From a virus (lineage: Duplodnaviria; Heunggongvirae; Uroviricota; Caudoviricetes), in IMG/VR virus record IMGVR_UViG_2695420792_000011, positions 1 to 8,103 of that record: a stretch of DNA of 8,103 nt; one strand, written 5' to 3'. Below are positions 5,547 to 8,103 of the stretch, piece after piece. Below the pieces are notes generated by a model that was not told where the DNA came from, made no database searches, and was given only the letters and a program-made list of their open reading frames with translations. Each line of letters opens with the position of its first letter. Within the stretch, counting starts at the first letter, position 1. A program made the translations under genes and the position numbers.

Positions 5547-5561
5547 ACTAAAACTATGGAT

Positions 5562-5588
5562 AACCCGTATATGTACGGGTTATTTTTC
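5562..5588. terminator. Hairpin aacccgta-tatg-tacgggtt followed by atttttc; intrinsic terminator between convergent genes
   Basis: 8-bp perfect stem 5562-5569/5574-5581, 4-nt loop, T-run 5583-5587 on the plus strand. The minus-strand stop codon (5580-5582) lies inside the right arm. Confidence 0.6.
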
Positions 5589-6128
5589 TTTATCACTATC
5601 TTTTCTTGATTTGAACAATCCACTAACAACGAAACCAACCAAACCAACAATACTAATTGTACTTGTACCTAGTAATGCAACGATCGCTTCAACTGGAGGC
5701 TTTCCTTCATGTGCAATAAGAAACGATGTAAACATTGCGACAACGAATAAGCACCAACACGACATAAACCAAACCGTGAATGAGGCCATTTTTGTCCGAA
5801 GCTCATTGTCTATTTCTTTACCAGTTGCGTCAGCTATCTTATCCCGTACTTGTGATTTGAGCATATCAAGCTGAGCTTGAAGACTGTCCATTCTGTTCTG
5901 CTGCATAAACTCATGCAATGCACCAGTATTAGAACCAAACTCTTCTGCCTCCAGAATAGCTTTATTTTCTGAAGAAGAATCATCGTCGCTCTCATGATTA
6001 GACGGCTCAAATGCAGATTTAAAAACCTGTTCTTGACTGTCAGTAGAGTTTAAGGATGCTTCAGAGCGACCATTTTCAACACCTGCGGCCGCTCCGATAA
6101 GTTTATAGATATCTGAATTGTGAGACAT
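5580..6128 (-). CDS. 182-aa membrane protein: acidic disordered N-terminus, predicted coiled-coil, two C-terminal TM helices; candidate toxin/effector (PanT-like) partner of the upstream DUF4065 protein
   Basis: ATG 6128-6126 lies 22 nt downstream of the stop of the 6151-6624 gene. Hydrophobic segments MASFTVWFMSCWCLFVVAMFTSFLIA and IVALLGTSTISIVGLVGFVVSGLF (about 5613-5786) are followed by a basic tail KSRKDSDKEK. AT-rich codon usage. Confidence 0.7.
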   Translation of the reverse strand: MSHNSDIYKLIGAAAGVENGRSEASLNSTDSQEQVFKSAFEPSNHESDDDSSSENKAILEAEEFGSNTGALHEFMQQNRMDSLQAQLDMLKSQVRDKIADATGKEIDNELRTKMASFTVWFMSCWCLFVVAMFTSFLIAHEGKPPVEAIVALLGTSTISIVGLVGFVVSGLFKSRKDSDKEK

Positions 6129-6150
6129 GTCATCCCTGAATATTACTTTT

Positions 6151-6624
6151 TCAGAGGCCCTGACATTGCTGTCGGTTATTCAATAAATCATGATAATAAG
6201 CCTTGATCGCATCATTTGAGATGATTGACGAGCCAATACCATTATAAGCTTGTGACCAAGGCGTACCTGGCATATGAGTTAGAGTTGATAACTCAATTCC
6301 ATTTTTCGAGCCGTAAAACTTATAAACAGCCCCGATAATGCTCTCTGCTTGCGGATCCATAGTAACGATGCCACCAAAAGGAGCTACTGCTACATTCGTA
6401 ACAGGTTTATTCCCATAGTCTTTGAAAGCATCGTACATTCCAGGAATAACTGGACCGTACTTCCACGCGGAGACACATTCATTGAGCAAAGGCTTACCTG
6501 TTAATGCTAAATAGTAACCATGGGCAATATAAGTAAGCTTCTGCAGTTGCATGTGGGTCAGAGGATTATGATGTTGGTTTCCCAACGTTATGAATTTATT
6601 GGCTATTTGTACCGGACTGTACAT
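6151..6624 (-). CDS. DUF4065 / Panacea-domain protein (PanA-like putative antitoxin; COG3600 GepA-like), 157 aa
   Basis: ATG 6624-6622 preceded on the minus strand by GAGGAGGGTGG. The track start at 6639 (MRRVV) sits inside this SD and is less likely. Conserved-looking core LTHMQLQKLTYIAHGYYLALTGKPLLNECVSAWKYGPVIPGMYDAFKDYG (AWKYGPV at 6448-6468). Confidence 0.75.
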   Translation of the reverse strand: MYSPVQIANKFITLGNQHHNPLTHMQLQKLTYIAHGYYLALTGKPLLNECVSAWKYGPVIPGMYDAFKDYGNKPVTNVAVAPFGGIVTMDPQAESIIGAVYKFYGSKNGIELSTLTHMPGTPWSQAYNGIGSSIISNDAIKAYYHDLLNNRQQCQGL

Positions 6625-6654
6625 AACCACCCTCCTCATTACACTGAATGTGCA

Positions 6655-6672
6655 AACAGTATCATCACTGTT
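6655..6672. promoter_or_regulatory. Inverted repeat AACAGT-atcatc-ACTGTT about 30 bp upstream of the Panacea gene start; candidate operator
   Basis: Perfect 6-bp arms with a 6-bp spacer read directly from the sequence. Its position in the 5' leader/promoter region fits an autoregulation site, but no promoter boxes could be placed confidently. Confidence 0.3.
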
Positions 6673-7321
6673 ATCTCAACCTAACACGAACAAAAAAGTT
6701 TTGGAAGATTGCAAGAGCAATTCACTGTGTTTATAACCAGCAAATGACTGTACATATACACAGGTTACAAATTGGTGGCGAATTATACCTGCAGAAGTTG
6801 CGATGTCAACAAAGCGACCATCACAGTGTTTTGCATCTGACACTGTTATGACAAAAAATCTTTTGATAGGTTCCCAATAGGCTCCCACAAAACACATAAC
6901 CAATTGTTTTTCAAAAACGATACATCCTATCGAGCATTGGTGCAACGCTAAACCGACCACTCCAGTGAACGTCAGTTTTTTCAGGCATTGCGCTGGTTTG
7001 GTTGATTTTTTGCATTTCAGAATTACCGTGCATTTTCAAATGTAGAGATTATTTTATCGATATATCATGGGGTTATGTTATTCAGCATCACTATTCAGGA
7101 GGCTCAATAGCGGGGTACTATACCATAACAACAGGAAGCGCCTGTCTCATTGCAAAAGAAAATTGAGATCCTCTCAAGGCATGAAGCTCTCACGAAGTGA
7201 TGGAAATAATCTTATTAGCCGTTAACTTTGTTAAGGCCAATGATAAACAATCCAGGTTCGACGATAAATAAAAAATCACACATTAAACTCTGGTGATATA
7301 TCTCCCTGCTAATAGCATTGA

Positions 7322-7352
7322 TAGAGAAAAAAGAACCCAATAAATATTGGGT
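7322..7352 (-). terminator. Intrinsic terminator for the 7396-8103 gene: hairpin acccaat-aaat-attgggt followed on the minus strand by UCUUUUUUCUC
   Basis: 7-bp stem 7335-7341/7346-7352 with the minus-strand T-tract at 7322-7332, about 45 nt downstream of the stop at 7396-7398. Confidence 0.6.
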
Positions 7353-7395
7353 CCTTTTATATAATGCCTTCCATACTATCGAAGAACTTCACATA

Positions 7396-8103
7396 TTATT
7401 TCTCCGATTTAACCCCGAACAAATCATAAATTAATTTAGAAGTGTCTGTAAGTATTTTAATCTCTTCCTTTGAGGTTGGGTCAAACGACTTCGCGAAGCT
7501 AATTAATTGTGGTGCAGCATCTCGCATTTTGCTTAAAATATCAGGATCGAGCGTTCCTTCATTCACCAGATGTGACATCTTATCCAGATAGCCATCAAAA
7601 TTCATTTCTCCCCCATCAGCCAGACGCTTCATCTCTCCCAGGTACTTCTTCATATCACGTTGAGATAATTTTTCAAACTGAGCTTTCAGGTAGCTCTCAT
7701 TATTTTCATTAATATACACTGTTTCTGATAAATCTGCGTAGGCACTAGAATATGAAAGTGAAATTAACAGCGAAGCAAATAATTTTAAGCTGTTGTCATC
7801 ATGTTCCTGGCAGGCATTAACAAACGTTAAAAAACCAGAACCTATTGCTTGAAAATGTATATTCGCTAAAGGTTCATTATCCTTAGATTCCTCATAAAAT
7901 AGCTGAACCGTGGAGGGAAGGTCATTCTTAGTTTCTACATCAAAAGTACATTGTTCAATGGGCATTGCATCTTTATTATCCCCAGGATTACATATACTAT
8001 TAATCGCGAAATGAAAAATAGCCCGGTCAACAACTGATGCAATAAAGTCACGATCGTTTAAATCCTCATCAGTGCAATCGTCAATATACTTATTGACCCA
8101 CAT
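7396..8103 (-). CDS. Hypothetical protein, at least 235 aa, AT-rich, no recognisable domain; may extend beyond the window end
   Basis: Long open frame with stop TAA 7396-7398 and a downstream terminator. The first codon in the window is ATG exactly at 8103-8101, so the true start may lie outside. Acidic, D/E/K/N-rich. Confidence 0.65.
   Translation of the reverse strand: MWVNKYIDDCTDEDLNDRDFIASVVDRAIFHFAINSICNPGDNKDAMPIEQCTFDVETKNDLPSTVQLFYEESKDNEPLANIHFQAIGSGFLTFVNACQEHDDNSLKLFASLLISLSYSSAYADLSETVYINENNESYLKAQFEKLSQRDMKKYLGEMKRLADGGEMNFDGYLDKMSHLVNEGTLDPDILSKMRDAAPQLISFAKSFDPTSKEEIKILTDTSKLIYDLFGVKSEK

Follow-up and report, generated by a model that had tools for sequence, protein, structure and literature searches.

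Organization of the locus

The window, by which we mean the whole 8,103-nt stretch of DNA analysed, contains a plus-strand early-left phage operon closing with a PrtN-family gene, a minus-strand panA-panT operon, an attachment site joined to a dusA 5' end displaced from the host gene, and a host gene of the DUF2713 family (Table 1). Very probably, a lambdoid prophage has integrated into E. coli dusA at the 5' end of the gene, and the window shows the prophage end that is distal to int (attR side). The PrtN-family gene is part of the phage backbone, and its homologue in mEp460 is annotated as an excisionase and adjoins cargo, attP, and int. Judged by the family labels and the position beside attP, its product is a putative excisionase or recombination directionality factor; a PDB sequence search gave no meaningful match for it or for PanA.

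Table 1. Positions of the genes and sequence elements in the window, with the evidence for each
Feature	Position	Strand	Evidence
PrtN-family, excisionase-like gene, 90 aa	5274..5546	+	Pfam PF11112, E 2.9e-23; PHROG 1300 'excisionase', E 7.7e-40
Variable cargo cassette (moron), 1344 nt, 39.4% GC	5525..6868	.	Similarity to other-cargo prophages up to 5524 and again from 6869
Bidirectional intrinsic terminator where panT and the PrtN-family gene converge	5558..5585	both	Terminator scan
panT, toxin, 182 aa	5580..6128	-	Identical to RefSeq WP_021563277.1
panA-panT spacer, 22 nt, RBS AGGGA	6129..6150	-	Sequence read
panA, antitoxin, 157 aa, standalone Panacea/DUF4065 domain	6151..6624	-	Pfam PF13274, E 6.2e-18
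Predicted sigma-70 promoter for panA-panT, TTGACA-16 nt-TATAAT	6782..6809	-	Consensus match 12/12
Conserved phage attachment arm	6869..6929	.	98% identical in an O111:H8 prophage with different cargo
Attachment core	6930..6956	.	Comparison of window, K-12 RP437, and KD0845 left junction
35 codons of host dusA (original 5' end, displaced)	6930..7033	-	RefSeq partial tRNA-dihydrouridine synthase
Host intrinsic terminator after the DUF2713 gene	7329..7358	-	13-pair stem, T tail; conserved host sequence
Host DUF2713 gene (yjbM part; yjbL/yjbM)	7396..8103	-	Pfam PF10897, E 1.5e-167

Three phage genomes, PhiR47_1 (PV340566.1), 1720a-02, and phiSTEC1575-Stx2k, carry the panA-panT cassette at the corresponding genome end, flanked as in the window and with 96-99% nucleotide identity, whereas upstream the early-left operon is mosaic and 61-70% of the window is covered. 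Matches in complete genomes all begin at position 343 and none at base 1. A tail-fibre fragment occupies the left end of the window, meeting the early region at about 343, and was not seen at that position in these three phages.

The panA-panT toxin-antitoxin operon

The founding Panacea/DUF4065 antitoxin comes from SocA-SocB of Caulobacter, in which SocA serves as a ClpXP adaptor that degrades SocB. The PanA of the window belongs to the same antitoxin domain family, its PF13274 match scoring 66 bits against a cutoff of 25.7. For PanAs, unlike SocA, the reported mode of neutralisation is the formation of a complex with the toxin (PMC8832971). The toxins of the two systems are unrelated. The translation of panA, which starts 6 nt downstream of an AGGAGG ribosome-binding site at the ATG at 6624, is identical to genes annotated WP_000287252.1, the accession under which the PanA from E. 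coli STEC O31 was validated by experiment (PMC8832971, Table 1 therein). The Kurata dataset lists that validated pair, of cluster T3, with the order A|T, a spacing of 22, a membrane target, and WP_000019185.1 as PanT (PMC8832971), so that the identical PanA, the antitoxin-first order, and the 22-nt spacer are all shared with the window.

The PanT allele of the window, found in strains KD0845 and VG888-46E9, differs from that of the validated pair. PhiR47_1 annotates PanA at this position together with a PanT one residue different from ours. Equal length, the same locus, a charged N-terminus, and C-terminal transmembrane helices are nevertheless common to our PanT and that of STEC O31. Residues 1-112 are acidic (22 D+E against 10 K+R), and two hydrophobic helices follow at about 114-140 and 145-172, as defined by Kyte-Doolittle peaks of at least 1.6 in 19-residue windows starting at 114-122 and 145-154. 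By these helices and the N-terminal charge, the protein fits cluster T3, the membrane toxins. Pfam gave for PanT only a sub-threshold match to DUF2207_C (16 bits against 33), which was not used. The genes form a compact operon, panA followed by panT, with one promoter upstream and one terminator downstream. Given the PF13274 domain and the co-oriented, antitoxin-first operon, panA-panT is very probably a type II Panacea toxin-antitoxin system, and one already known (Kurata et al. 2022, PMC8832971; annotated in PhiR47_1).

The tested allele WP_000019185.1 is a pore-forming membrane toxin, and for a pair made up of the identical PanA and an allele of PanT, growth arrest by the toxin and its neutralisation by PanA through complex formation have been published (PMC8832971). 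The identical partner, the common locus, and the 1-10 residue differences among six other alleles suggest that our PanT resembles the tested one. It would accordingly be described as a small inner-membrane protein that may depolarise and permeabilise the membrane, as seen in experiments with the allelic PanT, and PanA would neutralise it by direct binding, probably at the cytoplasmic N-terminal part of PanT.

The promoter upstream of panA is the sole 12/12 sigma-70 site in the window, and an equally good site arose in 32 of 20,000 shuffles of the cassette. Both hexamers are kept in all seven cassette copies checked, a 96%-identical allele among them. This perfect consensus is predicted to drive panA-panT, leaving a 5' UTR of about 150 nt; folding of the panA leader (~160 nt) gave no structure signal (z = -0.16). 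The operon is probably constitutive in the lysogen from this promoter, and read-through from the orphaned dusA promoter might add to its transcription. At the other end, the hairpin terminator proposed by the first-pass annotation is borne out, with a stem and a T-rich tail on each strand: 12 pairs at 5558-5585 followed by TTCTTTATCA on the plus strand, and 10 pairs at 5583-5560 followed by CCATAGTTTT on the minus strand. The panT stop codon (5580-5582) lies within the 3' arm of the terminator, and the switch from plus- to minus-strand genes indeed occurs at this hairpin.

A self-contained cassette in a variable slot

The variable segment takes in the last seven or so codons of the PrtN-family gene (from 5525) and ends where the attachment arm begins. 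Its GC content of 39%, compared with 47% in the neighbouring phage genes, is significantly deviant (chi-square p ~1e-6). Among 5426 complete E. coli genomes, 79 have the full-length cassette, always as a single copy and always on the chromosome, against 741 that have the backbone PrtN-family gene; it was also found in 3 of 50,697 phage records. A 94-aa minus-strand ORF at 6676-6960 was dismissed as spurious, overlapping the promoter and the attachment arm, having no family match, and being unannotated in RefSeq. The morons of lambdoid phages, a concept of Juhala and Hendrix, are said to be autonomous promoter-gene-terminator units of deviant GC lying between backbone genes. Likewise, the cassette appears to be an autonomous unit of deviant GC between backbone genes, having its own predicted promoter and terminator and being present or absent among close relatives. 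After the excisionase-like gene, the prophage very probably ends in a self-contained 1.34-kb moron and the attachment arm, followed by the crossover core and host DNA.

When related prophages are aligned, the same slot carries different genes, which shows, as the first-pass annotation had suggested checking, that the cassette is not conserved core content. At least three other cassettes share the slot, two of which carry unrelated Panacea modules. In the 5426 genomes, the counts were 357 at full length for the gp23/gp24 type, 46 for variant 3, and 207 for variant 4. The Panacea proteins of variants 3 and 4 (E 5e-20 and 2e-19) have differing partners, of 156 aa and 139 aa, and only 20-32% identity was observed among these two Panacea proteins and the PanA of the window. 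Counting that of the window, at least four alternative low-GC cassettes are found in this hotspot, which lies between attP and the excisionase-like gene, and three of them are built on unrelated Panacea proteins. The earlier suggestion of an accessory hotspot at the prophage end therefore holds for 5525-6868, where related prophages carry other genes, but not for the remainder of the low-GC region.

Attachment site and junction with dusA

Contrary to the earlier statement that no att site is visible, both the conserved arm and the crossover core TCGAGCAT (6930-6937) lie in the window. The arm is common to dusA-integrating prophages regardless of their cargo. It contains GGTTCCCA (6869-6876) and GGCTCCCA (6880-6887), which by their position are candidate arm-type integrase sites with the motif GGYTCCCA; strain KD0845 has three copies of the motif in its int-proximal arm. 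In the window, GGYTCCCR occurs twice, a count that is not significant alone, as 30 of 200 shuffles reach it. The 8-bp core is identical in attB, both prophage junctions, and the attP of mEp460, and 6930-6956 forms an imperfect direct repeat (23/27) of the int-proximal junction of KD0845. Identity to prophage-free genomes starts at 6930 (99.9-100%), and the records of 1720a-02, phiSTEC1575-Stx2k, and PhiR47_1 end at 6930-6937.

Beyond the core, the displaced dusA encodes 35 residues identical to the N-terminus of K-12 DusA and then reads into phage DNA, giving a dead-end ORF of 40 codons with its stop at 6911, whereas the intact K-12 dusA spans the 6930 point. In KD0845, the integrase and a restored dusA, whose N-terminus is diverged and phage-derived, stand at the opposite prophage end. 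The integrase is indeed missing from the window, as had been noted, because attP in the dusA phage family sits between int and the cargo/xis side; int consequently ends up at the opposite prophage end, beside the restored dusA. A tyrosine integrase is found at that end, which lies outside the window, in KD0845, PhiR47_1, and mEp460.

With both an orphaned 5' end and semi-conserved junction repeats, this is very probably a dusA-specific integrating element. As in the elements described by Farrugia et al. 2015 (PMC4482086), for which a 21-bp logo was published, insertion is at the 5' end of dusA, a replacement 5' end is supplied, the original one is left orphaned at the far side, and imperfect direct repeats mark both junctions. 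The placing of the integrase and restored dusA seen in KD0845 is also described for such elements. Unlike in those elements, only 8 bp of the 23/27 repeat make up the identical core here.

The sequence from 6930 to 8103 is host chromosome and not prophage cargo. Its DUF2713 gene, with 36.6% GC and an ORF that runs beyond the window end in many strains, stands beside intact dusA where the prophage is absent, and 4307 of the 5426 genomes had a match to it. An Rfam search of the whole window at E <= 0.1 returned only AbsR28, at 7312-7365 over the host terminator, which was rejected at 23.6 bits against a threshold of 50.

Base composition and the origin of the low-GC region

The GC content falls from 48.5% in 1-5546 to 38.5% in 5547-8103. 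The two 60-nt samples quoted in the first-pass annotation are accurate (53% at 4621-4680 and 30% at 5581-5640), but they exaggerate this regional contrast. The step itself is real: a single change point, placed where it fits best, gives a log-likelihood ratio of 38.8. Shuffling of bases (2000 times) went no higher than 8.7 and shuffling of 150-nt blocks (2000 times) no higher than 29.3, so the observed value was never reached. The boundary had been placed at about 5550, where the hairpin and the strand switch are indeed located, but the likelihood is flat over approximately 5200-5550 with its maximum at 5256 and is not sharp at 5547. The drop begins near 5250, within the PrtN-family gene, and the change point is blurred ahead of 5547 because this gene already has only 42% GC. 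At third codon positions, GC is 0.43-0.53 in the plus-strand genes compared with 0.31-0.39 in panT, panA, and the DUF2713 gene.

The low-GC stretch is composite, consisting of the PanA/PanT cassette at the prophage end followed by low-GC host chromosome. The original view of 5547-8103 as one horizontally acquired block of prophage cargo might seem natural, given that every gene in it is on the minus strand and that the GC content is alike on either side of 6930 (39.7% in 5547-6929 and 37.1% in 6930-8103, p = 0.18). We regard it as extremely improbable: the part from 6930 onward adjoins intact dusA at 99.9-100% identity in prophage-free K-12-type genomes, the phage records terminate at the crossover core, and both att elements are identifiable. 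It also seems very unlikely that the drop in GC is merely a by-product of membrane-protein coding and short intergenic regions with no separate origin. The hydrophobicity of PanT and the long AT-rich non-coding stretches in the region could point that way, yet the drop is greatest at third codon positions, those of the soluble PanA included, and about 90% of otherwise 97-99% identical backbones lack the cassette. The true junction at 6930 is compositionally invisible because the phage cargo and the adjoining host DNA are equally low in GC. This is a caution for composition-based calls, as the GC step fails here to delimit the mobile element.

Possible roles of panA-panT in the lysogen

One tentative reading, possible although we would not call it probable, is that panA-panT chiefly provides abortive infection or superinfection exclusion, in which an invading phage would free PanT from PanA and the ensuing depolarisation would kill or arrest the cell before the phage cycle completes. 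A predicted constitutively promoted moron at the prophage end, in a swappable slot such as those of known prophage defence hotspots, is consistent with this. Since no PADLOC model matched PanA, PanT, the PrtN-family protein, or any protein encoded by the alternative cassettes, a defence role finds no support from that side, and the literature examined contained no phage-defence test of this PanAT. A chief function as an addiction module, in which a stable toxin and a labile antitoxin would penalise a cell that loses the prophage or the att-proximal end of it, follows classical type II toxin-antitoxin logic and was raised by Kurata et al. for PanATs near mobile elements (PMC8832971). The prophage of the window seems to be internally deleted with its cassette intact, as such a module might lead one to expect. 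We nonetheless find addiction somewhat unlikely, as most prophages of the dusA family do without this cassette, and an excising phage removes the cassette too, so that harm to a cured cell would require PanT to outlive PanA. That the role is neither defence nor stabilisation is, in our judgement, somewhat unlikely.

The slot resembles the prophage defence hotspots of Rousset et al. 2022 (PMC9122126) in having alternative contents at one position. It differs from the P2/P4 hotspots in its location, which in dusA-integrating lambdoid phages is the interval from the excisionase-like gene to attP, and in that three of the four cassettes seen are Panacea modules and not recognised defence systems. 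One could go further and imagine the excisionase-attP gap as a dedicated exchange slot for Panacea sensor-effector modules, acting as phage-triggered abortive-infection systems whose expression would be partly tied to integration by dusA read-through; we consider this proposal conceivable, albeit unlikely.

The window itself matters little, as the toxin-antitoxin pair has been characterised and annotated in a phage, and the mode of integration at dusA has already been described. It does place the validated E. coli PanAT pair in a different light: despite its flag 'NotPhage' in the Kurata dataset, the pair lies inside a prophage here and in three phage records besides, and is thus phage-borne, on inducible phages including Stx-converting ones. 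With three unrelated Panacea modules in one slot, the connection that has been proposed between Panacea partner swapping and recombination hotspots could be studied by direct comparison, as could any defence of lysogens.

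Compositional boundary and prophage end

The window shifts from 48.5% GC over 1–5546 to 38.5% over 5547–8103. A 300-nt sliding profile ran at 0.44–0.51 over 1200–5250 and at 0.33–0.42 from 5400 to the window end. A single change point fitted best at 5256 (log-likelihood ratio 38.8). All shuffles stayed below this value: the 2000 base shuffles peaked at 8.7 and the 2000 150-nt block shuffles at 29.3. The first-pass annotation had placed the step at about 5547. The step is significant against the shuffles, but its likelihood is flat from about 5200 to 5550 because the PrtN-family gene already has 42% GC, and the step therefore begins about 300 nt ahead of that boundary. 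The two 60-nt samples originally used (53% and 30%) were correct as values but exaggerated the regional contrast. GC3 was 0.43–0.53 in the plus-strand genes, and 0.31, 0.39, and 0.33 in panT, panA, and the DUF2713 gene, respectively. The hairpin noted at the boundary is a bidirectional terminator, where the coding strand indeed switches.

The low-GC region had also been read as one foreign block reaching 8103, with no att site in the window. Neither reading held. Among complete E. coli genomes, those of strains without the prophage, K-12 derivatives among them, matched at 99.9–100% identity over exactly 6930 to 8103, a match overlapping intact dusA and the DUF2713 gene. A three-way comparison revealed a core, TCGAGCAT (6930–6937), identical in the window, at attB of K-12, and at the second prophage junction of E. 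coli strain KD0845, with host sequence to one side and phage sequence to the other; an imperfect repeat (23/27) continues from it as far as 6956. The orphaned dusA 5' end encodes the K-12 N-terminus before running into phage DNA and a stop after 40 codons. The interval 6930–8103 is therefore host chromosome, not phage cargo, and its GC content happens to match that of the cargo (37.1% vs. 39.7%; p = 0.18). The window matched 554 phage records, only three of which (1720a-02, phiSTEC1575-Stx2k, and PhiR47_1) covered it past 5546. All three matches ended at 6930–6937, which is record position 1 in the latter two.

At the opposite prophage end, a diverged, phage-supplied replacement of the dusA 5' end adjoins the integrase, and this orphaned-and-replaced arrangement is the same as in dusA-specific elements (PMC4482086). 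The integrase lies at that end because the mEp460-type order (int, attP, cargo, excisionase-like gene) places attP between int and cargo. After integration, the promoter and initial 35 codons of host dusA point into the prophage, which creates a 40-codon fusion ORF.

Many strains carry the host DUF2713 gene as an uninterrupted ORF of about 320–338 aa, but K-12-type genomes have a frameshift in it (yjbL/yjbM split); the ATG of the 235-aa part coincides exactly with the window end. The gene has 36.6% GC and looks itself to be an old acquisition.

Coordinates of features in the window and in comparison loci
Feature	Location	Strand	Remark
Early-left accessory genes	2095–5237	+	YfdQ/DUF2303, YfdR 5'-deoxynucleotidase, Ea22-like, DUF551, Rv2179c-like 3'-5' exonuclease
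Terminator, bidirectional hairpin	5558–5585	both
panT	6128–5580	−
panA-panT spacer		−	22 nt
panA	6624–6151	−	AGGAGG ribosome-binding site upstream
Sigma-70 promoter	6809–6782	−	12/12 consensus match
40-codon fusion ORF	6911–7033	−
Orphaned dusA 5' end	7033–6930	−
DUF2713 gene	7396–8103 and beyond		comparison loci L002 7997–9013, L005 1967–2952
gp23/gp24 cassette	L006 4011–4914; mEp460 (L008) 2241–3144
Variant 3/4 cassettes	L058 2832–3880; L067 4330–5531		IMG/VR; also in E. coli genomes L097, L098

The panAT cassette

Up to 5524 and from 6869 onward, the window is 98–99% identical to the dusA prophages of O111:H8 and O157:H7 and to the free phage mEp460, and wholly unlike them in between; the variable cassette is therefore 5525–6868. 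The proposed accessory hotspot at a prophage end thus applies to this interval but not to the remainder up to 8103. The cassette genes are not core content of related prophages, which carry other cassettes instead.

PanA matches Pfam SocA_Panacea (E 6e-18), and its translation is the same as that of genes annotated WP_000287252.1. This protein and PanT WP_000019185.1 form the validated pair of E. coli STEC O31 (Kurata et al., PMC8832971). The window PanT, which is acidic in its N-terminal half and carries two hydrophobic helices, is another allele, WP_021563277.1, and the PhiR47_1 annotation labels the same genes PanA and PanT. For the same PanA with a PanT allele, published work (PMC8832971) shows membrane-mediated toxicity and its neutralization by PanA; the present analysis established the identity of the genes, the anatomy of the operon, and the boundaries and distribution of the cassette. 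The Bartonella pair (PMC10440598) suggests, by analogy, that PanA may bind PanT at its cytoplasmic N-terminal part. The role of the cassette may be phage defence, prophage stabilization, or neither.

The promoter is the sole 12/12 sigma-70 site in the window; an equally good site arose in 32 of 20,000 cassette shuffles, and both hexamers were kept in all seven cassette copies checked. Transcription from this consensus promoter is probably constitutive. The orphaned dusA promoter could also feed panA-panT by read-through, since a terminator scan predicted none on the minus strand between 7033 and 6640.

Across eleven cassette copies, site diversity was twofold higher in panT than in panA (8.4 vs. 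4.2 per 100 nt), with 16 nonsynonymous variable codons in PanT and 4 in PanA. The four PanA changes were confined to one copy (L012), leaving PanA unchanged in 9 of the 10 other copies. Compared with the window (5580–6624), PanT differed by 1–10 residues among the ten other copies, transmembrane helices included.

Alternative cassettes in the same slot

The backbone PrtN-family gene was present in 741 of 5426 complete E. coli genomes. Among the 5426, the mEp460 gp23/gp24 cassette was the commonest in the slot (full-length in 357 genomes, O157:H7 and O111:H8 among them), followed by variant 4 (207), panAT (79), and variant 3 (46). Variants 3 and 4 came from 80 IMG/VR loci retrieved with the PrtN-family protein. 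Both code for a Panacea protein (193 aa, E 5e-20, and 190 aa, E 2e-19, respectively) and, after it, a small partner that differs between them (156 and 139 aa, respectively), for which no Pfam or PADLOC match was found; these partners are candidate toxins. The three Panacea proteins, including the window PanA, share only 20–32% mutual identity, and comparison of their partners gave no clear similarity. The gp23/gp24 proteins (177 and 57 aa) fall in PHROG families without known function and had no Pfam or PADLOC match. All four cassettes have 38–43% GC, and PADLOC models matched none of them.

The remainder of the prophage

The early-left accessory genes of the plus-strand operon form a mosaic, and their combination varies among otherwise close prophages; any complete genome covers at most 83% of the window. 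Window 1–345 (minus strand) codes for collagen-like Gly-X-Y repeats and shares 98% identity with an internal stretch of a gene for a lambdoid tail (fibre) protein; related prophages and genomes all match only from 343 on, placing a junction near 343–349. From these alignments, an internal deletion seems to have removed the immunity, replication, lysis, and head genes from the source prophage and to have joined a tail-fibre fragment to its early-left region.

Conclusions

Both the toxin–antitoxin system and the kind of place it occupies are known: the locus is a moron that adjoins the att site in a lambdoid prophage of the dusA-integrating kind. The Kurata et al. dataset (PMC8832971 supplement) labels the STEC O31 PanAT pair 'NotPhage'. 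These genes also lie in a dusA prophage and three phage genome records, and the validated E. coli PanAT is phage-borne despite that label. Our only, and small, addition to published work is this phage-borne PanAT and a slot where two further, unrelated Panacea modules can occur in its place. Such alternation fits the speculation of Kurata et al. (PMC8832971) that recombination hotspots drive Panacea partner swapping.
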